Positions 3,323-59,447 of a stretch of 64,000 nucleotides of DNA are shown here, piece by piece. The first letter of the stretch is position 1. Every line of letters starts with the position of its first letter. The stretch is from NCBI GenBank assembly GCA_964517135.1, contig CAZFBA010000002.1, positions 89,267-153,266 on the forward strand. The letters are read 5' to 3'. Position numbers and translations under genes: made by a program. The notes under the pieces were generated by a model. That model was given only the letters and a program-made list of their open reading frames with translations, did not search any database and was not told the DNA's origin. The DNA is from an uncultured Gammaproteobacteria bacterium. Its GTDB lineage: Bacteria; Cyanobacteriota; Vampirovibrionia; JBFMGH01.

Positions 3323-3338
3323 TAACACATATGTGTTA
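3323..3338. repeat. Copy 1 of a dispersed palindromic 16-mer TAACACATATGTGTTA at the convergent junction of 2517..3320(+) and 3336..3920(-)
   Basis: Perfect 16-bp palindrome. It starts 2 nt after the plus-strand stop codon and contains the minus-strand stop codon. Confidence 0.8.
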
Positions 3339-5062: not shown

Positions 5063-5259
5063 TGTATTATTCCTTTGCTTCTAGTGATTATAAATTAATT
5101 GTACCAATATATCCCCTTCTCAGAGGGACGCAACCTAATATAACAACATAAAAATTCCTTGTCAACAAATAAACTCATGGCTCTTTTCTCTTTAAATAGG
5201 TAAAATAGATATAAGACAAAATGTTTCGTATTTTTAAGTGTGCATGAGTTTTTGTAATA

Positions 5260-5997
5260 ATGCGAGATAATTCTGTTATTTATCTGTCGGTTGTTATTCC
5301 AGCTTATAATGAAGAATTAAGATTGCCTCCAACTCTTGATTCAATATTTAATTATCTTGATTTAAGAGATTATGACTATGAAGTGATTGTTGTTGATGAT
5401 GGAAGCAATGATAGTACGGTTGATATTGTAAAGCGTAATCCACGTTATGGCAGTCAGTTAAATCTTATAGAGCTTAATAATAACTATGGTAAGGGTTACA
5501 CTGTAAAAAAAGGTTTTGAAGTTGCGAAAGGCGACTATATTATTTATACTGATGCGGATGGTGCTGCTCCTATTGAAGAGTTAGAGAAGCTTTTAAAGGC
5601 TATAAATGATGGAGCTGATATTGCAATTGGTTCTCGAGCTTTAAAAGATTCTCAGGTCAAAGATCTCTGGTACAGGAGAATCATGGGTATTACTTTTAAT
5701 ACAATGATAAAGATAATAGTCATTGGTGAGTATGATGATACACAGTGTGGTTTTAAGCTTTTTAAGGCTGAATGTGCCAGAAAAATCTTTGATAAATTGA
5801 AATTAAGAGGTTTTAGTTTCGATGTAGAGTTATTATTTCTGGCTAAAAAGCTGGGTTTTAGTGTATCAGAAGTCCCTATTGTCTGGAATTCTATACCAGG
5901 AACCAAGTTAAATCTTTTAATTGATTCACCTTTGATGTTTCTGGCTGTTTTAAAAATAAGAATAATGGCTCTTCTTGGCTGGTATCGATTCAAATAG
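5260..5997 (+). CDS. GT2-family glycosyltransferase, polyprenyl- or dolichyl-phosphate sugar synthase type (DPM1 / ArnC / GtrB-like)
   Basis: The VVIPAYNEE start, the VDDGSxDxT and YTDADG (DxD) motifs, and a C-terminal membrane-association segment. Confidence 0.8.
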   Translation: MRDNSVIYLSVVIPAYNEELRLPPTLDSIFNYLDLRDYDYEVIVVDDGSNDSTVDIVKRNPRYGSQLNLIELNNNYGKGYTVKKGFEVAKGDYIIYTDADGAAPIEELEKLLKAINDGADIAIGSRALKDSQVKDLWYRRIMGITFNTMIKIIVIGEYDDTQCGFKLFKAECARKIFDKLKLRGFSFDVELLFLAKKLGFSVSEVPIVWNSIPGTKLNLLIDSPLMFLAVLKIRIMALLGWYRFK

Positions 5998-7499: not shown

Positions 7500-9350
7500 A
7501 TGGAATTATTGCTTAAATCTCAAAAAAGAAGACTTTATATATACCTGATTATTTTAATAATCGTTTCTTCGATGGCTCTTCGTCTTTATGGTATTAATTT
7601 GAGACCAATCTTTACAGATGAAGCTGTCCATTATAATTTTATTCATCAACTCTGGGAAACTCAAAAGTATCAATATAAAGATGTTATAACTCCTGTAAGT
7701 CTGGAATTTATAAACGATGGGCTTAATCTGTATTCCTCAATAGTGTTATCACCAGATTCAGAATCTTCCCTGGAAATAAATGATACAAAATACAGGTTAT
7801 TTCTTACAAAGTCTTTGTTTCTGAAGCCGGTTAATGATGCCCTTCAGTCATATTATTATTTTAAACATATTATAAAGAATCCTGCTTATGTTTATGACCC
7901 TGTTTATCATGGGCCTTTTCTTTATTACCTGGGAGATGTGGTTTTTAACCTTGCAAATGATCATAATTTATACCTTTTAAGGTTACCTGTCGTAATATCT
8001 TCTATTCTGGCTATATTTTGTCTTTTTCTTTTTCGTGAATCTCTCGGCAAATGGGGCTTTCTATTAAGTTTGCTTCTTGTTAGTCTTTCACCTGGCCTGA
8101 TTTACTTTTCTAATCTGGCTAACTATGAGAATTATTTTGCGACCGGGTCGATACTGGGGGTCGGGTTGCTTTTGATGGGTATTAAAAAACGCAGTCCGGC
8201 TATATTGTTTAGTTCTGGATTTGTTTTGCTGGCATTGATTACCATAAAAGAAACGGCTCTTGTGACCTGGTTTGCTATTGTTGTGGCTACGATACTAACT
8301 TATATTACTCTGTATCTGCCTAAAAGACCTTCAAGATGGTTAAAAAAGCTTGAAGATATGGTGCTTAATCTGGCTGAAGGTAAGTATACTGATTCTATAT
8401 TGCGTTATTTATTGCCTGCTCTTTTGTGTTTTGCTTTGTCTGGCCTGTTTTTTGTCTTGATGTATTCTTCTTGTGGCTCTAATCCGCACGGTATTCATGA
8501 TGGCCTGACCAGCTGGATGTACTGGAAAAACACAGGTGCACAGAGTGGTCACGTTAAACCTTTTGGCTTTTATACTGATATACTGTTGACATATGATTTT
8601 ATGCTGATATTCCTGTTTTTTACCGGTGCAATTTATACGTTGTATATGACTAAAGATAAATATAAGATTTTTATTGTCTACTGGGCTCTTGTAGTATGGT
8701 TAGTGTATGCTTTTATTCCTTATAAAACACCATGGCTCATAATAAACTTCATTTATCCTTTTGCTATTGTTGCTGGCACTGGCTGGGATATGATAATTAA
8801 AAGAATGAAAAACAAGTTATACAAATACTTAATGGCATTCTTTATTGCCCTGCTTGCTATGAATACAGTTTTTATAGCTGTTAAGGTAAAGTGGATCGAT
8901 CACGATAAAGAAGCCAATAAAATGGCATATGTTCATACTTATAGAGATTTTGAAGAAGAAATTAAGGCTCTTTATAGTCTTATTCTTGCATCACCAGATG
9001 GAGATAATACAGAGATTACTGTAGCAGCTCCAGAATACTGGCCCTTGCCAGCTTACCTGCTTGATTACAGGGCTGTTGGATATTTTGGAGGAGTTAAAGG
9101 TAGGGACCTCAACACTAAAGCCCCTATTATTATAAATGATAAACGTGATAATCCCGAGCTTAGAGAGCTTTTGCTGGAGTCTGATGTCAATGATTACTTT
9201 AAACTTAGAGACTTTGAAGTGAGACCCGGTGTCATACACTCAATTTTTGTAAGCCATCAGCTAATGAAGGCTTATCTTGAATCAGGTTATTACAAACTTT
9301 TGATTTCTCCCGGGCGGAGTTATCTACTTCAAGAACCCCCCTGGGATTAA
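7500..9350 (+). CDS. GT-C fold polytopic membrane glycosyltransferase (ArnT / PMT / dolichyl-phosphate-mannose-protein mannosyltransferase-like)
   Basis: More than 10 predicted transmembrane helices. An N-terminal RLYGINLRPIFTDEAVHY loop matches the GT-C first periplasmic loop (DE motif). The ATG at 7500 begins 1 nt after the upstream gene's stop. Confidence 0.7.
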   Translation: MELLLKSQKRRLYIYLIILIIVSSMALRLYGINLRPIFTDEAVHYNFIHQLWETQKYQYKDVITPVSLEFINDGLNLYSSIVLSPDSESSLEINDTKYRLFLTKSLFLKPVNDALQSYYYFKHIIKNPAYVYDPVYHGPFLYYLGDVVFNLANDHNLYLLRLPVVISSILAIFCLFLFRESLGKWGFLLSLLLVSLSPGLIYFSNLANYENYFATGSILGVGLLLMGIKKRSPAILFSSGFVLLALITIKETALVTWFAIVVATILTYITLYLPKRPSRWLKKLEDMVLNLAEGKYTDSILRYLLPALLCFALSGLFFVLMYSSCGSNPHGIHDGLTSWMYWKNTGAQSGHVKPFGFYTDILLTYDFMLIFLFFTGAIYTLYMTKDKYKIFIVYWALVVWLVYAFIPYKTPWLIINFIYPFAIVAGTGWDMIIKRMKNKLYKYLMAFFIALLAMNTVFIAVKVKWIDHDKEANKMAYVHTYRDFEEEIKALYSLILASPDGDNTEITVAAPEYWPLPAYLLDYRAVGYFGGVKGRDLNTKAPIIINDKRDNPELRELLLESDVNDYFKLRDFEVRPGVIHSIFVSHQLMKAYLESGYYKLLISPGRSYLLQEPPWD

Positions 9351-10046
9351 TTGATTAAGACTATAAGGGTCAAGAGGATCATAAGAGGCTTTTTGCTGGC
9401 CAGGATTTAAAGACATTGCGGCTTGATTTGCACGTGATGGAGCTGTCCCCGCAAATGGACTGAAGTGCGGGCTAGTTGAATCACCTATTCTATATTCTGT
9501 ATTAAAGCTGTTTAAAGCTGGTGTTAAATTATTTTTAGTGAAAAGCGGTACCACCTTTTGTTTTACAAAATGAGAAACGAGTGGACCTGCTACAGATGCA
9601 CCAACTGCAAAGGCACAAATACTCTGGAATGGCCCTTTAAGGTTCATTAGCTTAGCAGCACCCTGCGCAGCCATACCGCTGAACCACCATGTCGCATGAT
9701 TAATAGCGGTATCTCTTTTCTCCTGTGGAGTATTTTTCTGTGCTACCTGATAAAGCCCTATCGTACCTGCAATAGCAGGTAGTAAATAATATGGAAGTAC
9801 CTTATTTAAATGCATTGTTGCTAGTGCTGCACCTCCAGCCCAGCTAACAAGAGTGTTTGTAAGTAAATCATTTCTTTTTTGCGGATCCTTCTCAGTGCCA
9901 AGCTTATAAGCCATATTGCCAATAATCAGCCCAGGCAAGACAAGTCTGCCAGGAGGTATGTTATAAAGACCTGATGCTGCCTGTCTCACTGTTTGTGAGG
10001 AGGCAGTTAATCCTGCTGCTGCTGGTATCTTGCTTACACTGACCAT
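9324..10046 (-). CDS. Hypothetical protein (240 aa), Gly/Ala-rich with possible membrane segments
   Basis: ORF with an ATG start that overlaps the 3' end of the GT-C gene convergently. No recognisable motif. Confidence 0.4.
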   Translation of the reverse strand: MVSVSKIPAAAGLTASSQTVRQAASGLYNIPPGRLVLPGLIIGNMAYKLGTEKDPQKRNDLLTNTLVSWAGGAALATMHLNKVLPYYLLPAIAGTIGLYQVAQKNTPQEKRDTAINHATWWFSGMAAQGAAKLMNLKGPFQSICAFAVGASVAGPLVSHFVKQKVVPLFTKNNLTPALNSFNTEYRIGDSTSPHFSPFAGTAPSRANQAAMSLNPGQQKASYDPLDPYSLNQLIPGGFLK

Positions 10047-18516: not shown

Positions 18517-18532
18517 AATACATATGTGTTAT
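18517..18532. repeat. Copy 2 of the dispersed palindromic 16-mer (TAATACATATGTGTTA) at the convergent junction of 16188..18506(+) and 18574..18813(-)
   Basis: Starts 10 nt after the plus-strand stop codon. 15 of 16 positions are palindromic. Confidence 0.8.
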
Positions 18533-25624: not shown

Positions 25625-25640
25625 CAATACATATGTATTT
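25625..25640. repeat. Copy 3 of the dispersed palindrome (CAATACATATGTATTT; 14-bp perfect core AATACATATGTATT) at the convergent junction of dnaA(+) and the MscS gene(-)
   Basis: Located 7 nt after the dnaA stop. The core contains TACATATGTA. Confidence 0.8.
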
Positions 25641-46100: not shown

Positions 46101-46173
46101 GCGTCCTTAGTTCAGTTGGTAGAACGTCGGTCTCCAAAACCGAATGTCGGGGGTTCGAGTCCTCCAGGGCGCG
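46101..46173 (+). tRNA. tRNA-Trp (anticodon CCA)
   Basis: Manual cloverleaf: acceptor GCGTCCT / AGGGCGC, D-arm GTTCAGTTGGTAGAAC, anticodon stem TCGGT / ACCGA with loop CTCCAAA, and the GGTTCGAGTCC T-loop. Confidence 0.8.
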
Positions 46174-46212: not shown

Positions 46213-46473
46213 GTGGTAGCGAAAAGTAATAATTCTCAATCAATCAGTAAAAAGCAAAAGAAAGATAAAGTGCAGGAGGTTTCTTTTCCGGAGCAAGTTG
46301 TAACTTATTTTAAAGGTGTGCGTTCAGAGTGGCATAAAGTTACATGGCCGGATAGACAACAAATATTAAGGGAAACTTTAGTAGTCATCGCTGTTACTAT
46401 TTTTGTTACGGTTTTGATCTATCTAATAGACATCATTTTAAGATTTCTACTGGGGTTTATTACGGTTAATTAA
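46213..46473 (+). CDS. secE: Preprotein translocase subunit SecE
   Basis: An 86-aa protein with a single C-terminal TM helix and an FxxGVRSEWHKVTWP region. GTG start. Canonical position. Confidence 0.85.
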   Translation: MVAKSNNSQSISKKQKKDKVQEVSFPEQVVTYFKGVRSEWHKVTWPDRQQILRETLVVIAVTIFVTVLIYLIDIILRFLLGFITVN

Positions 46474-46482
46474 TAGATAGGT

Positions 46483-47250
46483 ATGAGCATGGTAGAAGAA
46501 GAATTAAAGAAAGATCAGCAAGAAAACATAGTTGATGATATAAATGATCAGTCTGACCTGGATAATACACTAGTAGATGATGCTGAAAGCCGTTCAGATC
46601 AGGATGAAATGCTTGAAGAAGAATTCTCTGAATCTCCAGATGCTTTTGAAGAACCAGATTTAGAGGCCAAGGATAAAAAGTTTAAAGAAGAGGCTAAAGA
46701 AGCCAGAGAGAAAAAAGAAAAACCTAAAAAGAAGCGCTGGTACGTTGTTCATACGTATTCAGGGCATGAAAATAAAGTAAAAGTCAATCTTGAGAAACGG
46801 ACAGAATTTATGAATATGGGGCACAAGATTTTTCGTGTCGAAGTGCCTGAAAAAACTGTTTCTAAAGTTAAAGACGGAAAACGGGTTGACAGAGAAGAAA
46901 GACTGTTCCCGGGTTATGTTCTGGTAGAAATGATTATGGATGATGATAGCTGGTATGTTGTCAGACATACTCCTGGAGTTACCAAATTTGTCGGTGCTGC
47001 CAGAAAACCAATACCTGCAAGAGATTCTGAAATAAAGAAAATTCTGCGTCGCTCACAGACGAAAGTCTCTAAAGTAGAGATTGATATACAGGTGGGTGAT
47101 AAAGTAAGAATCATTAGCGGGCCTTTTGCTGATTTTGTTGGTGATGTTACTGAAGTATACCCGGATAAAGAGAAGTTACGTGCGAATGTTTCTATATTTG
47201 GCAGGGATACCCCTGTTGAATTAGAATACAGTCAAATACAAAAAGTCTAA
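46483..47250 (+). CDS. nusG: Transcription termination/antitermination factor NusG with an ~85-aa acidic N-terminal extension
   Basis: WYVVHTYSGHENKV (NGN domain) and the C-terminal KOW region GDKVRIISGPFADFVGDV. The N-terminal extension is strongly acidic (D/E-rich). Confidence 0.9.
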   Translation: MSMVEEELKKDQQENIVDDINDQSDLDNTLVDDAESRSDQDEMLEEEFSESPDAFEEPDLEAKDKKFKEEAKEAREKKEKPKKKRWYVVHTYSGHENKVKVNLEKRTEFMNMGHKIFRVEVPEKTVSKVKDGKRVDREERLFPGYVLVEMIMDDDSWYVVRHTPGVTKFVGAARKPIPARDSEIKKILRRSQTKVSKVEIDIQVGDKVRIISGPFADFVGDVTEVYPDKEKLRANVSIFGRDTPVELEYSQIQKV

Positions 47251-47275: not shown

Positions 47276-47701
47276 GTGGCTAAAAAAGTACTGGCTAAAA
47301 TAAAATTACAAATAGATGCAGGTAAAGCAAATCCATCTCCGCCAATTGGCCCTGCCCTGGGTCAGCACGGTGTAAACATAATGGATTTCTGTAAACAGTA
47401 TAATGCTAAAACACAGGATCAAGCAGGCAGTGTTATACCGGTTGAAATAACTGTTTTTGAGGATAGGTCATTTACTTTTATCCTTAAAACTCCGCCTGCT
47501 GCCGTTTTAATAAGAAAGTATGCCGGCCTTGAAAAAGGATCTTCCAGACCAAATACAGAGAAAGTCGGCAAACTGACCAAAGCACAGGTGGCAGAAATAG
47601 CTAAAATTAAAATGCCTGACCTTAATGCTACAACTCAAGAGGCTGCCGAGCAAATGATCCTTGGTACAGCAAGAAGTATGGGCGTAACACTAGCAGAATA
47701 G
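47276..47701 (+). CDS. rplK: 50S ribosomal protein L11
   Basis: [30 protein letters not shown] start with a ggaagg RBS. Confidence 0.95.
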
Positions 47702-47747: not shown

Positions 47748-48476
47748 ATGTCTAAATTAACAAAAAGAAAACAGGTAATACTGGAACTTCTGGAAGAAGT
47801 TGAACAGCCATGTAACCCTTTAGATGCTATTAAATCTTTGAGAGCAATCAGTGAAAAGGTTTCAAAATTTGATGAAACAGTTGAAGTGCATATGCGTCTC
47901 GGTATAAATGTTAAGCATGCTGATCAGCAGGTAAGAAGTACCGTCGTCCTGCCTGAAGGAACCGGTAAGGTGATACGTGTAGCCGTTGTAGCAAAAGGTG
48001 AAAAGGTTAAAGATGCTGAAGCTGCAGGCGCTGATGTCTCGGGTGGAGAAGATCTGATCGAAAAAATTAAAGAAGGTTTCCTTGACTTTGATACTTTGAT
48101 CGCTACACCGGATATTATGGGTCAGCTCAGTAAATTAGGTAGAGTTCTGGGGCCTAAAGGCCTTATGCCCAGTCCAAAAACAGGAACTCTAACTTTTGAA
48201 ATAGCAAAAGCTGTTAAAGATGCCAAGGCCGGTAAAGTCGAGTTTAGAGCCGATAAACAGGGTATGATCCACGTACCTATAGGAAAAATGAGTTTTACCG
48301 ATGATTCTTTAATCAAAAACTTTGCTGCTTTAACAGATGCTGTTATCAGGGTTAAGCCATCAGCAGCCAAAGGTACCTACATGAAAACGGTTTATCTCAC
48401 AACTACAATGGGCCCCGGTATTAAAATCGAGACAAACCAGCTGGCAAATGAAATTAAGCAATATTTAATTACTTAA
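47748..48476 (+). CDS. rplA: 50S ribosomal protein L1
   Basis: The uL1 pattern ([10 protein letters not shown] ... GKVIRVAV ... [13 protein letters not shown]). An aggagg RBS. Confidence 0.95.
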
Positions 48477-48479
48477 AAT

Positions 48480-48495
48480 TAATACATATGTGTTG
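48480..48495. repeat. Copy 4 of the dispersed palindrome (TAATACATATGTGTTG) at the convergent junction of rplA(+) and the sugar-transporter gene(-)
   Basis: Starts 4 nt after the rplA stop. Over its first 15 nt it has the same sequence as copy 2. Confidence 0.8.
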
Positions 48496-48551
48496 TTTGC
48501 TGAAAGGCTGCCATAATAGCAGTCTTTCTTGCTGGTTTCAGGAACTATAAG

Positions 48552-50597
48552 CTATGAATTGATCCCGGTATTCTTCTTTTTAAAGTGTTTATAAAGGATG
48601 CACTGTTCATCTTTTATGAATTGGAAGGCTATAATGGATAATAGTATGGATCCGGCACCGACTAAAAAGGCTATTGACCAGTTATGTGTTTCTCCAAGCG
48701 GTGTCATCATTGGTAACTGTGATATTATCCATCCTACAATGGTTGCAGATATGAGTTGTGGCCCTGCTATGAATAGGTTAAATATACCCATAAAGGCACC
48801 TTCTTCACCTTCGACCATGTGATCACATAGATATGAGTAAGGTATTGACAGTATAGTTGCCCAGGCCACGCCGGCGAAAGCCATCATCGTTATAACTCCT
48901 GTGTGACTTTGTACCAGTGGTGCGCATGCAAAGGCACCAACCATGAAAAGCAATGATACAGAATAGACAATCTTTTTACCTGTTCGTAAACAAATGTATC
49001 CTATAGGTATTGACAGGATAAGGCTTATCAGATTAAAGGCTACCAGGCCTGATTGAGCTGTATTTGTTGCTTCAAGATCCAGTATTCTGATTTTTCTGTA
49101 GTTATCTATTGTGAGAAACTTTTTAAATATGGCTGGCAGGGTTGTTATTGAATCTTTCTGGTATTTGAAGATCTGTTTTTTGACTAATTTTTCACTGATT
49201 TTTTCCTTCATCTCTTTTTCTAGCGTTCTGTTCATTGTTGAAAGTTTCTGAAGATCACTGGATTCGCTTTCAAAATTTATTTTTCCTGCCAAAGTAATAT
49301 TATTATTTTTAAAAGTGTTGCTCAGTGCTGAATATTGGATTAGCATTGTTTGGTAGTCGAAAAGTTCTTTTGCTTCAACTAGATTCAGAAGACTTTTTTG
49401 TGTTTTATTGTCCAGAGTTGATGTTTGTATCTTATTGGTGAGTGTAGATTTTTCAGTGGACTTTTTAGCCAGAGATTTAATTTCTTGTCGGTACTTATTC
49501 TGGTAGATTTCAGGATCGGTTAATAATCCTTTTATCAGTATATTAAGCTCTTTATTATGATTATTAAGTGTTGTTTCTTCTGAATTAATCATTTTACGTT
49601 GCGTTTCTGATATTTTGCCTTTTGATAGAGTGGTTTTGATAGTTTGTTTTACATCAGGTACATTATTGAATCTGTTTGTTATGGTGTTTAACTGCTTAAA
49701 AGTATTATCTGACAGCTTATCAGATGAATTGATCTCGTTAATTATCGGGTTTAAAGTTTCATATTGGTGTTCAATTTGTTTATATTCTTTAGTAGATAGA
49801 TCTGGTATGTGGTATACATAGTGAACTGTATATGGCGTAAGGTATATGAACATACACATGATACCCATCCATGTTAATAGCTGTATCAGGCATATTTTAT
49901 GTATCTCTCTATCAGCTTTGAGAAACTTTTTATAGAATGTTAATATTGATTCTTTTTTCTTTGAGTCTTGAATAGCTTTTGATTTTGGATATTCTCTTAT
50001 TGTTAGTGAAGTATATATAATGAAGAATAGGAAAGCAATAGCAGCCATTATGTATTGCTGGCCAATAGTCATCTGAATATCGAAAAAACGGAGGATTGGT
50101 GCTACTGAAAGAGCGATAACGCTTCCTGCGCCGAAGGCAAAGTTTATATAAGCGTTGGCTACAGGGTGCTGCTCAGGTGGAACGTTATCAGGCACAAGGG
50201 CTCTGTATGGGCCCTGTGAGATATTTACGCATGCGTCGATGATCCATATGAAGAGAACAGCGACCCATAGATAAGGCGAAAAGGGGAAGAATATAAGTGC
50301 TATAGCTCCTAAAAATGCACCAACAAGCAGAAATGGTCGTCTTCTGCCTATTCGTGTCCAGGTTTTATCTGATATAGCCCCTACTATTGGTTGTACCAGC
50401 AAGCCTGTAATTGGTCCTGCACACCATATAAGGCCATATAAAAATGGGTTGGCTCCTAGTGGTTCTAAGACTCTGTTAGATAGTGCTATTTGCATGCTCC
50501 ATGTGAACTGGATACCTATGATGCCAGCACATAAATTAAAGAGTTGAAAAGTTGTTAGACGTGGAAGCCTGGTTTCTTTCTCCTTAGAATCGCTCAT
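48552..50597 (-). CDS. MFS / GPH-family sugar:cation symporter resembling sucrose transporters (SUT / SLC45-like), with a ~260-aa coiled-coil-rich insertion in the central cytoplasmic loop
   Basis: The N-terminal six TM helices carry a TWTRIGRRRPFLLVG motif (RxGRR in the loop between TM2 and TM3). A long hydrophilic Lys/Asn/Gln/Glu-rich insert is followed by six more TM helices. Confidence 0.65.
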   Translation of the reverse strand: MSDSKEKETRLPRLTTFQLFNLCAGIIGIQFTWSMQIALSNRVLEPLGANPFLYGLIWCAGPITGLLVQPIVGAISDKTWTRIGRRRPFLLVGAFLGAIALIFFPFSPYLWVAVLFIWIIDACVNISQGPYRALVPDNVPPEQHPVANAYINFAFGAGSVIALSVAPILRFFDIQMTIGQQYIMAAIAFLFFIIYTSLTIREYPKSKAIQDSKKKESILTFYKKFLKADREIHKICLIQLLTWMGIMCMFIYLTPYTVHYVYHIPDLSTKEYKQIEHQYETLNPIINEINSSDKLSDNTFKQLNTITNRFNNVPDVKQTIKTTLSKGKISETQRKMINSEETTLNNHNKELNILIKGLLTDPEIYQNKYRQEIKSLAKKSTEKSTLTNKIQTSTLDNKTQKSLLNLVEAKELFDYQTMLIQYSALSNTFKNNNITLAGKINFESESSDLQKLSTMNRTLEKEMKEKISEKLVKKQIFKYQKDSITTLPAIFKKFLTIDNYRKIRILDLEATNTAQSGLVAFNLISLILSIPIGYICLRTGKKIVYSVSLLFMVGAFACAPLVQSHTGVITMMAFAGVAWATILSIPYSYLCDHMVEGEEGAFMGIFNLFIAGPQLISATIVGWIISQLPMMTPLGETHNWSIAFLVGAGSILLSIIAFQFIKDEQCILYKHFKKKNTGINS

Positions 50598-50758
50598 TTT
50601 AAAAATTACCTTCTGGTTACTTTTTTACAGAGGGCTTTTTGTTTATGCCCATAACGAAATCTATTTTATATTCCTTATTAACACTAACACCTGCTGTTCT
50701 GGAATGAAAGTAAGCTTGTTGAGAAATTTACATTTTTATTCAATAGTGTTAAAACACT

Positions 50759-52105
50759 TTATTCAAGGTAGAAAAAAGGTTTTTGTGTATCTTTAAAAAC
50801 TTCCAGTGCCATAAGGTAGGTTGCTGCGCTCCATGTTTGATTAGCGTTAGAGATATTTTCTACGAATTGACCGCTATTCCCATCTACCCATTCGGGCATG
50901 TTATCTTTTAAGCTTTCTGTAATTACTTTAAGCTTTTCGTATGCGTCTTTAGTGTTCTTGTTTTTTATTAGAATAGTTATGTATATGTTTCCGATGAATG
51001 GCCAGATCCCGCAGTTCTGGTAATAATATGGATCGGAGGTTTCATCGGCTGGTACTAGCTCTTGCAGTTCATATTTTGATAGTGCTGGCCATAGTATCTT
51101 CATTGGATATGGCTTATCAATATCGTTTATTTCTATATAATTTAGTATTTGTTCAGTTTCTTTATCTGTTGTAATACCAAATGCTATAGCCATGAGGTTG
51201 GCAAGACTGTCAAACCTGTAATCATAATAGCCTGTTCTGACTGATGCTATAAAATAGCCACTATTTTTGAGTGTTCCTCTGTGTTCACTTTCTGTTGTTT
51301 TGATGTTAAAGGGGTTTTTCTGTCTGTATGAAAATTCATCGTTGCGGTGAAAGCTTTTTGGTATTATGGTATTTAACTTATCCAGTTTTGTCTGGTTGAT
51401 CCAGAAGTATTCTTTAATAAGAGCTTTAATTTTAGAGGCATAATCCTGGTATATTTTTCTGCTATCCTCAGAAAAAAACTCTTTAAGGTCTGAAGCAATT
51501 CGTAAAGCTCCGTAGAGTAAGACCTGGTTATATGCAACATATCCATAAAGCTTGTGCGGCCTGTCAATATGAGTAGTACAGTCTATTGAAGCTATAAGAG
51601 GACATGGATCAAACAGATTATTTTCTATTGAAAGGTTTAATGCGGCTTTATAGGCGGTTTTGATATTGTCATAAAAATCTTTGTTACTGGTTTTTTTAAG
51701 AAATTCACCAGTTAGAATCAGGTAAAGAAGAGTTGAATCGATAGAATGTATATGTCCTATAGTACTGGTTGTACCTTCAATAAGGTTATCGTTATCTGGA
51801 TTAATAGAAATAGGAACTCTTCCACACTGGTTAATTTTTTTTGATAACATCAGGAGGTAGTTTTCAGGATGTTCGTACGTTCCTGCTGTCAGGTCATACA
51901 GCAAAGAGTATATGTTATCCCTTGTCCATAAAAACTTATAGTCAGGATGTTTGATTTCACTAGTACCTAGTGCCATATATCCCTGAAAATTACCGTTTTT
52001 AGTGAAGATAGTTGCATTATTTAAAACCTCTCTCGCTTTTTGTGCTGTTTTATCAAATATACTAAGGTCTAGATGCTTTGTATAATGCTTATATTGTCTG
52101 TTCAA
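50759..52105 (-). CDS. Six-hairpin (alpha/alpha)6 glycosidase-like protein, probably GH100 (neutral/alkaline invertase-like)
   Basis: TIGHIHSIDSTLLYLILTGEF resembles the GH100 IGRVAPVDSGLWWIIL motif as recalled from memory. It also has a C-terminal QNCGIWPF. TTG start with an aaggag RBS. Family assignment is tentative. Confidence 0.45.
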   Translation of the reverse strand: MNRQYKHYTKHLDLSIFDKTAQKAREVLNNATIFTKNGNFQGYMALGTSEIKHPDYKFLWTRDNIYSLLYDLTAGTYEHPENYLLMLSKKINQCGRVPISINPDNDNLIEGTTSTIGHIHSIDSTLLYLILTGEFLKKTSNKDFYDNIKTAYKAALNLSIENNLFDPCPLIASIDCTTHIDRPHKLYGYVAYNQVLLYGALRIASDLKEFFSEDSRKIYQDYASKIKALIKEYFWINQTKLDKLNTIIPKSFHRNDEFSYRQKNPFNIKTTESEHRGTLKNSGYFIASVRTGYYDYRFDSLANLMAIAFGITTDKETEQILNYIEINDIDKPYPMKILWPALSKYELQELVPADETSDPYYYQNCGIWPFIGNIYITILIKNKNTKDAYEKLKVITESLKDNMPEWVDGNSGQFVENISNANQTWSAATYLMALEVFKDTQKPFFYLE

Positions 52106-52269
52106 ATTTCAAATCTCCTTTATTTAAAGGTCTTTATGATCTTATCAGGTGTTTTCATTGATTAATATAATTCACTATCTTACCATAATTTATGAATAAT
52201 ATTAATAATAGAGCCTCCTTCATCTGTAAATCAGGAGGCTTTTCTTATTATAACCCTCATTTGCAGAAA

Positions 52270-54372
52270 TTATATTTTCAACCACATTTTCTGGTAAGGT
52301 TTAAGCATAATTTTAAGGCTGTTTTGATCTGATGTGATGCCTATTTGTTCCTTTGTTATAAGATCAATTGCTTTGTTATTATTCTTTTTAAGGTTTTTCA
52401 GGTTGTCAGGGCTAACATTAAAGCATGCTTCTAGTTTTTGATCAGACAGATTATTTATAACCAGAACTTTATCATCATCTTTTACTCTTATATAAGAAAG
52501 TATTTCAGGTTTATCAGATTCTACTTTGTTGAATGAGCCTCTTCTTAAAGCTATATTGTCTTTTCGGGCTTTGATCATGTCTTTAACCGTATAGAAAATT
52601 TTTGCTTTATAGGTATCTTTTTCTTCAAGAACTTTGTAGAATTCATCTTTTTCGATAGGGCCTCGGTTAATATCTCTGCTGTCATAGAAGCTAATGACTT
52701 CGATATCTTTATCTTTTTCTCTTTGAACACGTTCACGCTCTTCAGCTGCCATTTCAGCGTATTTAAGGTTGTTTTGGGCTCCGATTTCATCGCCATAATA
52801 GATTATAGGCATACCTGGCAGTGATAATAAAATAGAGTAGGCCAGAGTTATTCTGCTGGGGTCTTTATCAAGAAAATCTGCCATTCTTCCACTAACACCG
52901 AGGCCTTTTCTGAATTCTTTACCTTTTGAAATGAGCTTGTCATAAATGATTTTACGTGTTTCAATATCGACCATTTCAAGAGTAAGTTCATCATGAACTC
53001 TTAAAAACATTGCCCAGGTAGCAGATGGAGGTATTTCAGGTGTTATTTCATCAGCTTTCCAGAAAGGTTCGTTATTTTCTGTTATTAATGATGCCCATAT
53101 GGCAGGCATATATGGGAAGTGGTATCCTATTTGTACTTCATCTGTTCGAACAAGCTTTCTATCGGGCTGCACAAGTATCGAATTATCTTCTCCGTATTGT
53201 ATTTGAATGTTTCTTGGAGGCAGTGTATTTTCTGTTCCAAAGTATGGAAGAATATCTTCAGGCCACTGACAGGCTTCAGCCAGCATAATTGAACGAGGAC
53301 CTGTAGCCTGTAATGTAGAGCTGATAAGCTTAACTACTTCATGTGTTTCCGGTAAGTTCTCTGCATTAGTGCCTTCTTTCTTTATAAAGTAAGGTATAGC
53401 ATCGACTCTGAATATATCTACCCCAAGGTTATTCCAAAATGCAACTATTTTGAGTACTTCATACATTACTTCAGGGTTTTTCCAGTTGATATCAGGCTGA
53501 AATGGATAAAAAGTGTGGTACACATAGTAGTCTTTGTCGCCGATCATTATTTTTCTATAGTGGCTTTCAGCAATATCAGGGAATATAAGTCTTCTTGATG
53601 ATACTTTACCATCATCCTCATAATAATCAACGATAATACCTTTCTGTTCATCACGATATTTCTTATATTCCGGACGGTCTTCTCTGTAAACAAAATAATT
53701 TAGCTTGTCAAGGTCTCCGGCCAGTGCTTCCTGGAACCATTTATGCTGGTCAGAAAAGTGGTTCAGAATGAGATCTGCTTTAATTTTGAACCCTCTTTTG
53801 CGTGCTTGATAAATGAAATTTCTGAATTCTTCCATTCCGCCAAGTTCTTCACGTACATTATTGGGATCTCTAACGTCAAAACCTGCGTCACCCATAGGTG
53901 AATCCATAAAAGGCAGCATGTAAATGGTTGTTATGCCAAGCTCTTCCAGATAGTCAAGCATTTCAACCAGGTCGTTAAAAGTGCTGGGCTTATTATTGGT
54001 CCGGCCAAAGTGTTCGGTGTAAAACATATATACAATTTCATCTTTGTACCAGTCTGAAATTCTGTTGATATCGTTTTGATGAAGCTTTACCGGTCTTTTA
54101 TCTTTTGCGTTATTAATGATTTCCAGTACTTTTGGGTAGATTTCATCAACCTGGTTTTCTCCGTAAATTTTAGTCAGAGAGCTTTTAATATTCTCTTTTA
54201 GCTGGTCTGGTATTTCGGCAGATGGGTTAATAGAGATTTTTTGATCGGTAGTAATAGTCTCTTTTAAAGATTTCTGGGTAATTGTTTCTGCTATAGTGTT
54301 ATTAATGGTTAAGCAGGATACAATTAATAAACTTAAAATACTTGTAAGCAGGTGTCTTTTTTTAGTTTGCAT
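52270..54372 (-). CDS. Secreted GH13 alpha-amylase-family enzyme of the TreS / amylosucrase / sucrose-isomerase type (alpha-glucosyl transferase / hydrolase)
   Basis: A signal peptide (MQTKKRHLLTSILSLLIVSCLT). GH13 region I ADLILNH. Region II GVDIFRVDAIPYFIKKEGTNAENLPETH, which closely resembles TreS LFEREGTNCENLPETH as recalled from memory. Confidence 0.7.
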   Translation of the reverse strand: MQTKKRHLLTSILSLLIVSCLTINNTIAETITQKSLKETITTDQKISINPSAEIPDQLKENIKSSLTKIYGENQVDEIYPKVLEIINNAKDKRPVKLHQNDINRISDWYKDEIVYMFYTEHFGRTNNKPSTFNDLVEMLDYLEELGITTIYMLPFMDSPMGDAGFDVRDPNNVREELGGMEEFRNFIYQARKRGFKIKADLILNHFSDQHKWFQEALAGDLDKLNYFVYREDRPEYKKYRDEQKGIIVDYYEDDGKVSSRRLIFPDIAESHYRKIMIGDKDYYVYHTFYPFQPDINWKNPEVMYEVLKIVAFWNNLGVDIFRVDAIPYFIKKEGTNAENLPETHEVVKLISSTLQATGPRSIMLAEACQWPEDILPYFGTENTLPPRNIQIQYGEDNSILVQPDRKLVRTDEVQIGYHFPYMPAIWASLITENNEPFWKADEITPEIPPSATWAMFLRVHDELTLEMVDIETRKIIYDKLISKGKEFRKGLGVSGRMADFLDKDPSRITLAYSILLSLPGMPIIYYGDEIGAQNNLKYAEMAAEERERVQREKDKDIEVISFYDSRDINRGPIEKDEFYKVLEEKDTYKAKIFYTVKDMIKARKDNIALRRGSFNKVESDKPEILSYIRVKDDDKVLVINNLSDQKLEACFNVSPDNLKNLKKNNNKAIDLITKEQIGITSDQNSLKIMLKPYQKMWLKI

Positions 54373-54689
54373 GTTGTAATTCCCTTCTGTATGTGATTGA
54401 AAGTCATTTTGTATTTTTTGAGTATATCAATAATAACACAATCCGCATTACATTAAATTTAATGCAATACGCTTCTGTATCGACGTGGTCAATCCTGTAA
54501 ATGTAATTTTTACTAAAACAATAATAGTGTTTTACTTACCATGTTTTGATATGCTTAAATTCTTGCCTGGGTTTTTTATTTAGGGATGTTAATTTTTTAA
54601 AATTCTTGTGCTGTCTTGATTTACCTTTAAGAAACATTACACATCGTAACAATTAATAACTAAAATGATTCTTAATTGACAGGTAATAC

Positions 54690-54718
54690 TTGCATGGTCT
54701 TTTTCTCTTTGTTAATAT
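54690..54718 (+). promoter_or_regulatory. Candidate sigma-70 promoter for the rplJ-rplL operon (TTGCAT-17-TAATAT), followed by a ~160-nt leader containing stem-loops
   Basis: A -35 / -10 pair with a 17-bp spacer. The downstream leader has the inverted repeat TCTGTGA...TCACAGA at about 54822-54853, consistent with an L10 autoregulatory leader. Confidence 0.35.
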
Positions 54719-54881
54719 TACGCAAATAAACAGGAAAAGCCGCAGACAGCAGGTACTAAAAGTTTAATTGGTTTCCAAGCAGCCTGCCGAGGTAAATTTT
54801 AAAATTTAATCCTTGAATTCTGTGTTTCTGTGAGCTTTTCTTTTCACAGAAATTTTTTATGAAAGGAGGGTGATTAGCTGA

Positions 54882-55412
54882 ATGCCCATTACCAGAGAAC
54901 AAAAGGCGAATAAGATTGATAAAATTAAAGAAGAGATTTGTAAATCTTCAGTAGCTATAGTAACGGATTATCGTGGTTTAACAGTAGAAGAAATTACCGC
55001 TTTAAGACGTAGCCTTCAAGAAGTAGATGCTGAATATTCAGTGGTTAAAAATACTTTAGCTGATATAGCTGTAAAAGATACAAATTATGAAGCTCTTCAG
55101 GGCTTTTTAACAGGTCCTACGGCTTTAGTGCTTGGGCGTAAAGATCAGGTTGCACCAGCTAAAGTACTTACACAATTTATCAAAAAAGCAAAAAAAGTTT
55201 CTATAAAAGGTGGAGTTCTTGATGGAAGTGTGCTTAATGAAGATCAGGTTAAGCAACTTGCAGATATTCCATCTATTGAAGAGCTTTATGCCAAGATGCT
55301 CGGAAGTATTAACTCACCTGCTACTGGTATTGCTACATGTATAAACAACGTTATGAGAAATATGGTTGTTTGTATAGATGAAGTGAGAAAGCAAAAAGAA
55401 GCACAGGGATAG
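54882..55412 (+). CDS. rplJ: 50S ribosomal protein L10
   Basis: The uL10 pattern. A ggagg RBS. Confidence 0.9.
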   Translation: MPITREQKANKIDKIKEEICKSSVAIVTDYRGLTVEEITALRRSLQEVDAEYSVVKNTLADIAVKDTNYEALQGFLTGPTALVLGRKDQVAPAKVLTQFIKKAKKVSIKGGVLDGSVLNEDQVKQLADIPSIEELYAKMLGSINSPATGIATCINNVMRNMVVCIDEVRKQKEAQG

Positions 55413-55480: not shown

Positions 55481-55861
55481 ATGAGCCCAGTTGTAGACGA
55501 AATCCTAGAAAAAATTGAAGGACTTACACTATTAGAAGCTGCAGACTTAGTAAAGAAAATGGAAGACAAGTTTGGTGTTAGTGCTGCTGCTGCTGCACCA
55601 ATGATGATGGCTGGCCCGGCTGCTGGAGCCCCTGCTGAAGAAGCTGAAGAGACAGATGTAGATGTAATTCTGGCTTCTGTCGGCTCACAGAAGATACCGG
55701 TTCTTAAAGAAATCCGTGCAATGACTGGCCTCGGACTTAAAGAAGCCAAAGAACTTGTTGATAATACTCCTAAGCCAATTAAAGAAGCTATTAAGAAAGA
55801 AGAAGCGCAAGAAATTAAGAAAAAACTTGAAGAATTGGGCGCAACTATTGAGATTAAGTAG
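55481..55861 (+). CDS. rplL: 50S ribosomal protein L7/L12
   Basis: The N-terminal dimerisation helix, an Ala/Pro-rich hinge ([20 protein letters not shown]), and the C-terminal domain [12 protein letters not shown]. Confidence 0.95.
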
Positions 55862-56135: not shown

Positions 56136-59100
56136 ATGTCTACTAAATTTAAACCCCGTGTAAACCCTTATGAAGGTATTACATTTTCTCATATTTCAGA
56201 ATTACCAGACTTGGCTGAAATCCAGAAGAATTCGTTCAACTGGTTTTTGACTGAAGGCCTGAAAGAAGAACTGCTTTCATTTTCACCTATTAAAGACTAT
56301 ACAGGTAAGCTAGAACTCCACTTCTTGCCCAGTTATACTTTTGATAATCCCAAGTATTCTATTGAAGAAGCTCGATTGCATGATGCCAGTTATACCAAAC
56401 AACTCAGGATAATGATGCGTTTGGTTAACCGTGATACTGGTGAAATTAAAGATCAAGAAGTTTATGTAGGTGATATACCTATGATGACTGATAAAGGCAC
56501 ATTTGTTATTAATGGTGCTGAAAGGGTTGTTGTCAGTCAGATTGTTCGTTCTCCTGGTATATACTATAAAAAGGATATTGCACCTAATGGTAAACGTATC
56601 TTTAATGCAACTCTTATACCTAACAGAGGTGCATGGCTTAAGTTTGAAACAGATGTTAATGATGTAGTTTTTGTTAAAATCGATAAAAACCGCAAGATTC
56701 TTGCTACAACATTACTTAAAGCTCTTGGTATCAGTACATCAGAGATGGGTAGCTTGTTCAGTCATTCTGAGTTTCTTAATAAAACCATTGATAAAGATGC
56801 TACAGAGACAATGGATGATGCCTTAATTGAAGTTTATAAAAAACTAAGACCGGGTGATCCTCCATCTGTAAGCGGTGGAAGAACTATTATTGAGAGCAGA
56901 TTTTTTGATGATAAACGTTATGACCTTGGCAGAGTTGGACGTTACAAGGTAAATAAAAAACTTGGGCTTAACCTCCCTGAAACTCAAAGAACGCTTACTG
57001 TTCAGGATATTGTTGCTTCAATAGACTATCTGATTGGCCTTTATTATGATGATGGTTATGTTGATGATATTGATCACCTTGGCAATCGTCGTATACGTTC
57101 AGTTGGTGAGCTTCTACAGAACCAGTTTCGTATAGGTTTAACTCGTCTTGAGCGTATTGTCAAAGAAAGAATGACACTGCAAGATTCAGATACATTGACA
57201 CCAGGTAATTTGTTGAATACTAAGCCTTTAGTTGCAGCTATTAAAGAGTTTTTTGGATCTTCTCAGCTTTCACAGTTTATGGATCAAACAAATCCGCTGG
57301 CAGAGTTGACACATAAACGAAGGTTATCAGCTTTAGGGCCTGGTGGTCTTGCTAGAGAAAGAGCAGGGTTTGCTGTTCGAGATATTCACCCCAGTCATTA
57401 CGGTAGAATATGTCCGGTAGAAACACCTGAAGGTCCAAATGCCGGTTTGATAGGTAGTCTTGGTACTCACGCAAGGGTCAACCCTTATGGTTTTATTGAA
57501 ACTCCTTATCGTAAGGTTAAAGATGGTATTGTAACTGCAGAAGTTCATTATCTTGCGGCTGATGAAGAAGATAACTTCAGGGTTGCACCCGGTGATGTAA
57601 AACTCAATGATGACAAGACATTTGCTGATGTCATTGTACCAAGTCGCTATAAATCTGAGTTTACACTTTCTGAAAGTTCAAGGGTTGACTATGTTGGTGT
57701 TTCTCCTATTCAGATTATCTCTGTGGGTACAGCATTAATACCATTTCTGGAACATGATGATGCTAACCGTGCACTGATGGGCTCAAACATGCAACGTCAG
57801 GCAGTTCCATTATTGCGTTCAGAAAGGCCTCTAGTTGGTACAGGTCTTGAAAAACGAGCTGCTCAAGATTCAGGGATGGTTATTGTCTCCAGAGACGAAG
57901 GCGAAATAATTAAAGTTACAGGTGAAGAAATCCATATCGACACAGGGATGGGTATTTCTAAATATCCATTAATGAAATATGTACGCAGCAATCAGGATAC
58001 CTGTTTGAATCAGCGTCCTATTGTATCAATGGGTGAAAAAATAAAAGTCGGAGATGTTATTGCTGATGGTGCCTCTACAGATCTTGGTGAACTGGCACTC
58101 GGACGTAATATACTGGCTGCTTTTATGCCCTGGGAAGGCTTTAACTATGAGGACTCAATATTAATCAGTGATAGATTGGTTCATGATGATGTATTTACAA
58201 GTATTCATATTGAAAAACTTGAAATAGATGCAAGAACTACAAAGCTTGGCCCTGAAGAAATTACCCGTGAGGTTCCTAATGTTTCAGAAGATAGCTTAAG
58301 ACATCTTGATGAGATTGGAATTGTAAGAATAGGTGCCAGAGTTTATGCAGATGATATCCTGGTAGGAAAGATTACACCGAAGGGTGAATCTGAACATCCA
58401 CCTGAAGAGAAGCTCTTAAGAGCAATATTTGCTGAAAAAGCTAGAGACGTAAGGGATAACAGTTTAAGAGTTCCTCACGGTGAAGGCGGGCGTGTGCTGG
58501 ATGTTAAAGTATTTGACAGAGAAAAAGGTGATGAGCTACCTCCTGGCGCAAATACAGTTGTTAGAGTGTATATTGCTCAAAAACGAAAAATCAGTGTAGG
58601 CGATAAAATAGCAGGCAGACATGGTAACAAAGGTATTATTTCTCAGGTATTACCAAAAGAAGATATGCCTTTCTTGCCTGATGGTACTCCTGTAGATATA
58701 GTTCTTAGCCCGTTAGGTGTACCCAGCCGTATGAATGTAGGTCAGACTTATGAAACAATGCTTGGTCTGGCTGCATATTTACGTGGTATTAGTTATGAAG
58801 TACCACCGTTTGATGAGATGTTTGGTGAAGAAGCTTCACGTAATATGGTCAACAAAGAGCTTAAAAAAGCCAAAGAGCAAACAAACATAGACTGGATACA
58901 CGATGATGGTAAGGTTGTATTATATGATGGTAGAACTGGTGAACCATTTGACTATCCGGTTTCTGTTGGTTATATCTATATGCTGAAATTAGTACACCTT
59001 GTAGATGATAAAATCCACGCTAGAAGTACAGGTCCTTATAGTCTTGTTACCCAGCAGCCGCTTGGTGGTAAGGCTCAGTTTGGTGGTCAGCGTTTCGGAG

Positions 59101-59447
59101 AGATGGAAGTATGGGCTCTTGAAGCTTTTGGAGCTGCATATACCTTACAGGAAATGCTTACCATTAAGTCAGATGATGTTCAGGGCCGCAGTAGAGCCTA
59201 TGAAGCTATTGTTAAAGGTGAAAACCTGCAACGGCCAGGTATACCTGAGTCGTTCAAGGTTCTGGTGAGAGAGCTTCAAAGTATAGGCCTTGACATTACT
59301 GTAGCCAAAAAAGGCGGTGTCGAGGTTGACCTTATGTCTGATACTGAAGAAGTTAAGAAAACTGCACCGAAGAGAACCCTGAGTGATATAGACTCTGAGC
59401 TTTTGAAGATTGATCTGTTCCCAACACCCCCTACTTTAGGTGAATAA
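56136..59447 (+). CDS. rpoB: DNA-directed RNA polymerase subunit beta
   Basis: A 1103-aa protein with conserved beta-subunit blocks ([35 protein letters not shown]). Confidence 0.97.

Follow-up and report, generated by a model that had tools for sequence, protein, structure and literature searches.

Antisense carbohydrate genes between rplA and rplJ of an uncultured Melainabacterium occupy an operon boundary and are probably not a recent insertion

Introduction

The ribosomal protein genes rplK, rplA, rplJ and rplL are contiguous in most bacteria. In a 64,000-nucleotide stretch of metagenomic DNA (contig CAZFBA010000002.1 of assembly GCA_964517135.1, positions 89,267 to 153,266, forward strand; hereafter the window), the rplA and rplJ genes are separated by a gap of 6.4 kb (48477-54881), filled by three minus-strand genes for sugar utilisation. 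They code for a transporter of the major facilitator superfamily (MFS), a protein resembling family 100 of the glycoside hydrolases (GH100) and an exported enzyme of family GH13. A first-pass annotation had described these genes as an acquired cassette for sucrose or alpha-glucosides, set into an otherwise universal rplKAJL-rpoBC cluster, with rplJL having acquired their own promoter and leader. The question raised by this locus is whether a conserved operon was interrupted by foreign genes, or whether the genes came to stand where two operons had always met.

The reading that we favour, and consider probable, is that the gap is old and permissive, that the GH13 gene is ancestral to it, and that a pair of genes for the uptake and cleavage of a disaccharide was swapped in beside it.

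Results

The rplA-rplJ junction across the order

Judged from its sequence, the host of the window is an uncultured Melainabacterium (Vampirovibrionia), in or near the Gastranaerophilales, because rpoC is split into rpoC1 and rpoC2 and because the nearest rplA relatives in the GTDB species set are metagenome-assembled genomes (MAGs) named 'Candidatus Gastranaerophilales' and 'Melainabacteria', with 62-73% identity. The split rpoC is a cyanobacterial hallmark, found here in a non-photosynthetic lineage. The G+C content (GC) of the window is 36.5%. Its rplJ, rplL, rpoB, rpoC1 and rpoC2 genes are contiguous, unlike those of typical oxygenic cyanobacteria, where rplJL-rpoB-rpoC1-rpoC2 do not follow one another.

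A scan of the genome collection for L1 gave 80 related species loci with flanks of up to 10 kb on each side, which were searched by tblastn with the proteins of the window. Orthologs of secE, nusG and rplK were recovered in these 80 loci, and the order secE-nusG-rplK-rplA was kept in every locus long enough to show the upstream flank. On the other side of rplA the picture was the reverse: of the 72 loci that extend 1 kb or more past rplA, none had rplJ as the next gene, and of the 54 that extend 9 kb or more, a single one (L022) had it downstream at all, 9.2 kb away, across an interval holding tmk, map, adk, gyrB, a pilin-like gene and a protease gene. Elsewhere in the order this position was occupied by a LexA-like gene with trmFO, or by valS. 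No homolog of any of the three sugar genes was detected within 10 kb of rplA in the 80 loci. The rplKAJL cluster is generally broken at the junction of rplA and rplJ in this order, and its description as otherwise universal does not hold here.

The separate standing of the two units is also visible in the sequence around rplJ. In Escherichia coli, rplKA and rplJL-rpoBC have separate promoters and the L10(L12)4 complex autoregulates through the rplJ leader; in Bacillus subtilis the rplJ leader is controlled by transcription attenuation. The window is alike in that two units meet between rplA and rplJ, and in that rplJ has its own promoter and a leader of the L10(L12)4-responsive type, the hairpin of which resembles the attenuation type of B. 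subtilis. The promoter TTGCAT-17-TAATAT lies exactly where the first-pass annotation had placed it, its -10 hexamer ending 4 nt ahead of the leader recognised by Rfam. Both hexamers are kept in two related loci (L089 and L090), and the -35 hexamer reads TTGAAA in L095 and L096; the leader likewise precedes rplJ in L089, L090 and L095, and also in L022, which is more distant. When the GH13-rplJ spacers of five sequences were aligned, conservation was confined to islands: both promoter hexamers, the core of the leader and the attenuator-like stem followed by its T-run. This stem and T-run were invariant, and the remainder of the spacer had diverged. Because promoter and leader are conserved in the relatives and are standard in E. 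coli and B. subtilis, they represent the ancestral start of rplJL(-rpoBC) and are therefore not a product of the intervening genes, contrary to the idea that they had been acquired.

On the rplA side, the hairpin where rplA and the MFS gene converge (48503-48527), which is weaker when folded as the minus strand, is likely to be the terminator of rplKA and could possibly also end the MFS transcript. Relatives carry clear intrinsic terminators at the equivalent position. We conclude that rplKA and rplJL meet at an ordinary operon boundary, and that the sugar genes sit at this boundary and not within an operon. What differs from the model bacteria is the distance: the intergenic region between rplA and rplJ is short in these, whereas in the window it holds 6.4 kb of antisense carbohydrate genes and in most of this order the two units do not even adjoin.

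Two observations on the wider cluster were made in passing. In several gut Gastranaerophilales (L049, 1-10726; also L017, L018, L019, L042, L045 and L057), rplJ-rplL lie about 8 kb upstream of secE-nusG-rplK-rplA with AddAB-like helicase-nuclease genes intervening, and rpoB does not follow rplL, which leaves the classical cluster fragmented. One MAG (L028) carries secE-nusG-rplK twice (4545-5932 and 8471-9936), about 3.9 kb apart, through duplication or an assembly problem.

The GH13 gene at the same position in four related species

Close relatives of the locus were found by looking up the contigs that bear the nearest GH13 orthologs. Five loci from four species (L089; L090; L095/L096, from GCA_040752795.1; L101/L102, from GCA_050173485.1) have the flanks of the window, running from yjeF, an acyltransferase gene and aroA through rpmG-secE-nusG-rplK-rplA on one side and comprising rplJ-rplL-rpoB-rpoC1-rpoC2 on the other. 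These four species stand much nearer to the window, with 82-83% identity in L1 and 89-91% in RpoB, than do any of the GTDB representatives retrieved. Their gene order is rplA, a trehalase gene, the GH13 gene (antisense, divergent from rplJ) and rplJ, the GH13 ortholog having the same position and orientation as in the window. The gene between rplA and GH13 is co-oriented with rplA and codes for a GH37 trehalase of 584-620 residues, with a PF01204 match, TreF and TreA as best NCBIfam matches and an N-terminal signal peptide.

Identity in GH13 is 61-66% when the window is compared with the four relatives and 70-76% among the latter; the corresponding values for a concatenate of housekeeping proteins are 78-80% and 82-86%. 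The divergence of GH13 thus parallels that of the housekeeping genes, which is the pattern expected of vertical inheritance at the locus, and on this evidence the common ancestor of the five genomes would certainly have had GH13 in the gap. What this species alone has at the locus is the segment with the GH100-like and MFS genes (about 48552-52105). The three genes were accordingly not acquired as one unit: related genomes share the GH13 part of the arrangement, paired with a trehalase, and the GH100 and MFS part was found at this locus in the window species only. In part, this is the outcome that the first-pass annotation had named as grounds for rejecting its reading. In one of the relatives (L089, 14081-15250), an IS4-family transposase gene stands between rplA and the trehalase gene; the same gap accepts insertions.

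Given the metagenomic source, a chimera of assembly or binning could have joined a sugar locus to ribosomal-protein contigs. We rule this out with next to no reservation. The exact GH100-like protein is present on at least 21 contigs (ENA, Logan, NCBI and JGI) from several samples and assemblers, up to 693 kb in length; all those long enough show the identical gene order, the same junctions recur, and both flanks of the junctions are common to the related species.

Composition, mobility and the 14-nt palindrome

The three sugar genes have a GC of 0.35-0.37, a GC at third codon positions (GC3) of 0.31-0.33 and a synonymous-codon distance of 0.12-0.15, which is within the range of the window (means for genes of at least 200 residues: 0.377, 0.294 and 0.147, respectively). 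A comparison of GC and codon usage with the flanking genes, offered by the first-pass annotation as a check on acquisition, gave a native composition and no sign of transfer, and a transfer signature in composition was rejected, all three measures being ordinary. No direct or inverted repeats flank the gap; no integrase or transposase reading frames and no remnants of insertion sequences (IS) were found within it. Searches of the window by tblastn with the relatives' proteins revealed no remnants of the trehalase, the IS4 transposase or a PfkB kinase.

The palindrome AATACATATGTGTT, reported as copy 4 of a motif at the junction, is located there, and its consensus AAyACATATGTrTT occurs seven times in the window against about one expected (3324-3337, 18517-18530, 25626-25639 and 48481-48494; also at 10748, 15054 and 33838). 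Four copies lie 4-11 nt past the stops of plus-strand genes at convergent gene ends. It is absent past rplA in the relatives, and an exact copy occurs in the convergent GH13/trehalase junction of L090 (12142-12155). The element could be a protein-binding site or be associated with terminators. An insertion site or recombination scar at 48481 was considered and discarded: copies stand at convergent ends throughout the window, none follows rplA in the relatives, and no link to the sugar genes was shown.

These data bear on the proposal that a three-gene cassette for sucrose or alpha-glucosides, come through horizontal transfer or as an island peculiar to the lineage, was recently inserted into an intact rplKAJL-rpoBC cluster and forced a new promoter and leader on rplJL. 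It is true that the three genes share one orientation, opposite to that of the cluster, and have related functions, that the GH100-like gene is nearly without relatives, and that the trio is found near rplA in none of the 80 related species. However, the GH13 gene has an ortholog at the same site in four species with a divergence matching that of housekeeping genes, the MFS gene has orthologs in the lineage, the promoter and leader are conserved and typical, the composition is native with no repeats, integrase or IS remnants, and rplA and rplJ are adjacent nowhere in the order sampled. A recent cassette is highly improbable as an account of the locus, and for GH13 and for the promoter and leader it is largely refuted.

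The GH13 enzyme

The first-pass assignment of a secreted enzyme resembling trehalose synthase (TreS) or amylosucrase was borne out by structure matches and signal peptide. Among solved structures the protein comes closest to trehalose synthases (1e-93), followed by amylosucrases (1e-50); in its N-terminal segment, the alignments with amylosucrases begin at about residue 59-63, ahead of the start of those with TreS. With these enzymes it shares the catalytic residues of GH13 and a TreS-like region IV: DLILNH, FRVDA (D324), AEAC (E366) and VHDELTLE (D461) are invariant in 10 orthologs, as is region IV in the form FLRVHDELTLE. A signal peptide is present in all bacterial orthologs, its cleavage context being conserved and of the 'LAQ' type. 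A lipoprotein was considered and rejected, since the Cys of the lipobox-like IVSC is not conserved in the orthologs and the 'LAQ'-type signal-peptidase I site is kept instead. TreS is typically cytoplasmic, whereas the GH13 protein of the window would, with its Sec signal peptide, be periplasmic or secreted; also unlike TreS, its orthologs in the relatives are paired with a periplasmic trehalase. This adjacent trehalase is the sole link of the enzyme to an interconversion of maltose and trehalose, and a circumstantial one. Upstream of the GH13 start, the near-palindrome CGCATTACATTAAATTTAATGCAATACG is a possible operator and lies in a stretch absent from the related loci.

Orthologs of about 700 residues are numerous in Melainabacteria (52-67% identity), and distant ones are found beside valS (L097) or in an unrelated context in the gut genome 'Adamsella' (L099). 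Directly past the GH13 stop, a hairpin (52212-52240) is a candidate terminator dividing GH13 from the GH100-like and MFS genes; the spacer between these two showed no comparable structure (RNA fold z = -0.8).

Such features could be taken to mean that the gap is a permissive, terminator-bounded landing site where GH13, the GH100-MFS pair and the ribosomal operons are neighbours without functional linkage. The contents of the gap differ across the order, an IS4 transposase gene sits in that of L089, a candidate terminator separates GH13 from GH100, and distant GH13 orthologs have unrelated neighbours. In the five gaps that bear GH13, however, all other genes are carbohydrate-active with the exception of this one transposase gene, which is unlikely by chance but draws on very few independent events. 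We therefore hold a purely neutral co-location to be somewhat unlikely, while keeping it in view.

The MFS transporter

The reading of the transporter as SUT-like was upheld by Pfam (MFS_1/MFS_2) and by NCBIfam, in which TIGR01301 (GPH_sucrose) is the best match. Its nearest solved structures are AtSUC1 (1e-19) and human SLC45A4, aligned over the N-terminal half. In the alignment with AtSUC1 (8bb6), the protein shows GRRRPF, wiiDacvN opposite WILDVANN and QGPyRA opposite QGPCRA; RRRPF, the Asp of transmembrane helix 4 (TM4) and QGPxRA in the N-terminal half are thus shared with the plant SUT/SUC and animal SLC45 proteins. The acidic TM4 residue for proton coupling is reportedly Asp152 in AtSUC1, and the aligned Asp is present. 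Hydrophobic blocks span residues 20-255 and 518-660, in which a simple hydropathy scan resolved not all of the twelve helices expected of an MFS protein. Between TM6 and TM7 lies a hydrophilic central loop of about 250 residues (about 266-515), rich in K, N, T and E; SLC45A4 too has a long central loop. Unlike the SUT/SUC/SLC45 proteins, the transporter is only weakly similar in its C-terminal half and stays below the TIGR01301 cutoff, and its bacterial relatives are annotated as maltose or maltooligosaccharide transporters.

Orthologs in the lineage are 48-54% identical over their full length and measure 496 to 799 residues, varying mostly in the central loop. In GCA_040752795.1 a different contig bears the ortholog, as part of the series PfkB-MFS-CHASE2-rpsE-rpmD-rplO-secY-adk-map. 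A contig from SRR30765736, the run of L090, has the same downstream order and starts about 200 bp before the MFS gene, so that the PfkB position is off the contig. The more distant genome of L093/L094, with an L10 63% identical to that of the window, also has PfkB-MFS. The best family match of this PfkB protein is fructokinase, below the cutoff of that family. With PfkB-MFS found in the sister group as well as in an outgroup, the simplest reading is that the position of the MFS gene in the window is derived.

MFS orthologs were also seen to recur at the edges of other ribosomal-protein operons (L091, 1691-9834; L092, 214-7737; L093, 6920-12697). In L091 and L092 a CHASE2 gene separates the ortholog from rpsE-rpmD-rplO-secY-adk-map directly downstream, and in L093 and L094 it lies 1.6 kb past the 3' end of rplL.

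The GH100-like hydrolase

The assignment of the middle gene to GH100 is supported by a PF12899 match that is full-length (profile positions 6-433 of 435), with a score far above the gathering cutoff of 23.6 bits, and by an invertase fold. The gene has a TTG start with an AAGGAG ribosome-binding site, and its product has no signal peptide and is predicted to be cytoplasmic. Among PDB sequences it matched only Anabaena InvB and InvA and Arabidopsis CINV1 (E 1e-30 to 8e-27). An AlphaFold2 model built from a 27-sequence alignment (pLDDT 90.4, pTM 0.92) was placed by Foldseek next to the (alpha/alpha)6-barrel invertases 5gop, 5z74 and 6ttj (E about 1e-21, TM score 0.82-0.84, identity in the fold alignment 22-25%); the next fold family, amylo-alpha-1,6-glucosidase, reached a TM score of 0.60 only, and the 50 best fold matches included no trehalase. 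D181 and E405 are conserved without exception in 27 diverse homologs and stand opposite the Asp of IDRR and the Glu of PEY. The catalytic residues of InvA, to which these two correspond, are Asp188 and Glu414, according to PMC6995568, which cites Xie et al. 2016. The protein shares with InvA, InvB and CINV1 the full-length Pfam match, the fold, the catalytic Asp and Glu and the cytoplasmic location, and its host is, like Anabaena, of cyanobacterial kinship.

The window protein and its two close homologs nevertheless form a subfamily of their own, with only three known members, set apart from InvA, InvB and CINV1 by an Asn (Asn420 in the window protein) at the site of InvB Arg430, the residue assisting the catalytic Glu; classical GH100 proteins retain the Arg. 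The trio has the motifs IDRP and MPEW...SNxNQTW, where classical members have IDRR and WPEYYD...GKQARxxQTW. A search of 5.8 billion clusters yielded only two homologs above 40% identity, and an exhaustive phmmer search of 1.84 billion representatives gave 282 matches at E <= 1e-3, of which only 2 at E <= 1e-30. A scan of JGI metagenomes with the three-sequence profile recovered only L087 again. Neither of the two closest homologs has GH13, MFS or ribosomal genes alongside: when the same cassette was sought elsewhere, the homolog in L087 proved to be near integrases and that in L088 on a short contig with unrelated flanks. A search of the literature on Melainabacteria for an invertase or TreS found nothing useful.

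As an observation on L087 (1-9589), its 44%-identical homolog (P0003) adjoins two phage-type integrases, helix-turn-helix regulators and an rve transposase fragment, and may lie on a mobile island in that organism.

The position held here by the GH100-like and MFS genes is the one held by the trehalase in the relatives, which raises a functional alternative, the main rival of our reading for the substrate. The three genes would form one pathway for trehalose or alpha-glucosides and not for sucrose. A disaccharide such as trehalose or maltose, made or trimmed by GH13 in the periplasm, would be imported by the MFS protein and cut in the cytoplasm by a GH100-like enzyme of shifted specificity, in place of the periplasmic cleavage by trehalase in the relatives. 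In its favour, a variable module occupies the same position beside the same GH13, trehalase and GH13 both carry signal peptides, the GH100-like trio lacks the Arg430 equivalent as its own subfamily, and the shorter MFS orthologs are labelled maltose transporters by JGI. GH100 and GH37 are, moreover, both six-hairpin (alpha/alpha)6 enzymes, and both invert and cleave anomer-to-anomer alpha-glucosyl bonds. For GH100, inversion and this type of cleavage are given in PMC6995568. On the other side, the model is far closer to invertases than to other six-hairpin enzymes, no sequence similarity between the GH100-like protein and trehalase was detectable, the MFS gene of the relatives is accompanied by a gene for a fructokinase-like kinase, which suggests a sugar that yields fructose, and a hairpin divides GH13 from GH100. 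That the GH100-like gene is itself a diverged trehalase copy was rejected, as sequence similarity was not significant and the fold search put the invertases far ahead. We judge this functional replacement unlikely.

A stronger form of it holds that the GH100-like protein founds a new and very rare subfamily of three members, the substrate of which is not sucrose but the disaccharide handled by GH13, for instance trehalose or an isomer of sucrose or maltose, the MFS and GH100-like proteins together being a non-orthologous, cytoplasmic replacement of the trehalase. We regard this, too, as unlikely. If it were true, GH100 would extend beyond invertase activity, and a deep GH100 branch in non-photosynthetic relatives of cyanobacteria would bear on the origin of the neutral invertases of cyanobacteria and plants.

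Features of the locus

Reading-frame coordinates and Pfam and NCBIfam labels agree on the three minus-strand genes between rplA and rplJ, as the first-pass annotation had them, and L1, L10 and L7/L12 all exceed the equivalog cutoffs of NCBIfam. The features are collected in Table 1.

Table 1. Genes and sequence elements around the rplA-rplJ gap of the window (positions in the window).
Feature	Position	Strand	Basis and remarks
tRNA-Trp(CCA)	46101-46173	+	ARAGORN and Rfam; precedes secE, conserved left flank; also in L089, L090, L095
secE	46213-46473	+	Open reading frame (ORF) list; Pfam labels on identical genes in L001
nusG	46483-47250	+	ORF list; Pfam labels on identical genes in L001
rplK	47276-47701	+	ORF list; Pfam labels on identical genes in L001
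rplA (L1), final gene of the rplKA unit	47748-48476	+	TIGR01169, 304.8 bits (cutoff 216)
14-nt palindrome, copy 4	48481-48494		5 nt past the rplA stop; fourth intergenic copy
Hairpin between convergent rplA and MFS genes	48503-48527		Sequence; fold -20.4 kcal/mol, z = -2.5 (+)
MFS symporter, GPH/SUT/SLC45 type, 681 aa	48552-50597	-	Pfam MFS_1/MFS_2; TIGR01301 best NCBIfam match
Divergent GH100-like glycoside hydrolase, 448 aa	50759-52105	-	PF12899, 181 bits
8-bp GC-rich hairpin (AGCCTCCT...AGGAGGCT) with U-rich tail	52212-52240	-	Sequence; fold z = -2.2
TreS-like GH13 with N-terminal Sec signal peptide, 700 aa	52270-54372	-	Alpha-amylase catalytic domain; treS_nterm best NCBIfam match
28-nt near-palindrome	54444-54471		About 75-100 nt upstream of the GH13 start; possible operator
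rplJ promoter	TTGCAT 54690-54695; TAATAT 54713-54718	+	Sequence; 17-nt spacer; TGT before the -10 (extended -10)
L10 leader (RF00557)	54722-54867	+	Rfam, 70.5 bits (gathering score 44)
Terminator-like hairpin and U-run inside the L10 leader	54824-54853	+	Terminator scan
rplJ (L10)	54882-55412	+	NF000955, 180.9 bits
rplL (L7/L12)	55481-55861	+	TIGR00855, 144.7 bits
rpoB	56136-59447	+	ORF list; Pfam labels in L001
rpoC1, 572 aa	59495-61213	+	ORF list; Pfam labels in L001
rpoC2	61260 to window end (64000)	+	ORF list; Pfam labels in L001

Discussion

The locus is best explained, in our view, by an old boundary with changing contents. The rplKA and rplJL-rpoB-rpoC1-rpoC2 units would have stood apart for long at a natural boundary in this lineage, rplKA ending in a hairpin and rplJL starting at a conserved promoter of sigma-70 type and an L10 autoregulatory leader with an attenuator-like hairpin, and the gap between them would hold carbohydrate genes. 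A periplasmic TreS-like GH13 gene, divergent from rplJ, would already have been there in the ancestor of this and at least four related species. The segment beside rplA would be the variable one, with a periplasmic GH37 trehalase in the relatives and a cytoplasmic GH100-like enzyme with an SUT/SLC45-like proton symporter here, this module of about 3.7 kb having presumably been swapped in without leaving a detectable signal of mobility or composition.

As to substrates, transcription units and the direction of the exchange between trehalase and the GH100-MFS pair, we infer the following. The symporter would import a non-reducing or alpha-glucosyl disaccharide, most likely sucrose, together with protons, and the GH100-like enzyme would split it in the cytoplasm. 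That the sugar is sucrose is our best guess, suggested by the GH100 fold and catalytic residues, the SUT/SLC45 signatures and the link to a fructokinase-like kinase in the relatives. The role in sucrose or alpha-glucoside use that the first-pass annotation had proposed is plausible by homology, on which the protein functions given here rest; its acquisition as a cassette is what the data do not support. The GH13 enzyme may act on alpha-glucosides or alpha-glucans in the periplasm and would form a separate transcription unit, while the GH100-like and MFS genes may be co-transcribed or the MFS gene may have its own promoter. The antisense orientation, with MFS convergent to rplA and GH13 divergent from rplJ, and the hairpins at both 48503-48527 and 52212-52240 could shield the sugar genes from ribosomal read-through.

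Several points weigh against this explanation. Of the five genomes sharing the locus, that of the window species has diverged most, and parsimony alone therefore cannot settle whether the original partner of GH13 was the trehalase or the GH100-MFS pair. That the MFS gene moved in depends on assumed orthology and on the presence of PfkB-MFS in the sister group and a distant genome, and a second MFS gene, a trehalase or a PfkB gene may exist elsewhere in this genome; the sequence read comprised the 64-kb window and flanks of up to 10 kb around genes that were looked up. Having so few relatives, the GH100-like gene could, by itself, be of old horizontal origin. As regards the assignments, the GH100-like protein is about 24-30% identical to characterised invertases and has Asn420 opposite the Arg430 of InvB; the MFS protein scores 82 bits against a TIGR01301 cutoff of 511, over residues 26-253 only, and its shorter orthologs bear the maltose and maltooligosaccharide labels of JGI; the GH13 protein scores 389 bits in TIGR02456, the cutoff of which is 678. 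Finally, promoters and terminators are predicted for the sugar genes at the level of consensus, and the consensus scan, with site counts no higher than in shuffled sequence, supports nothing alone.

The same families co-occur in the sucrose-catabolism sets of cyanobacteria, where published clusters comprise an invertase, an amylosucrase and a fructokinase; in the lineage studied here they are represented by GH100, an amylosucrase/TreS-like GH13 and, in relatives, a PfkB gene by the transporter gene. Unlike the cyanobacterial sets, those of the window belong to a non-photosynthetic host, the GH13 enzyme is exported, and no sucrose-synthesis genes were seen here.

All the families involved are known. 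What is new is a rare divergent subfamily of GH100 and a widespread exported TreS-like GH13 of Melainabacteria, both uncharacterised. The two enzymes are reasonable targets for enzymology; no major question is opened by them. Overall, we see in the locus a modest curiosity of gene order and not a recent foreign insertion. It is a cautionary case, in which the break in a 'universal' cluster is an old natural operon boundary, shared or variable across the order, and neither a recent insertion nor a regulatory innovation. Melainabacteria of the Gastranaerophilales type have generally uncoupled rplKA from rplJL, and one clade among them keeps carbohydrate genes in the gap, swapping modules between a trehalase and a transporter with a GH100-like enzyme.

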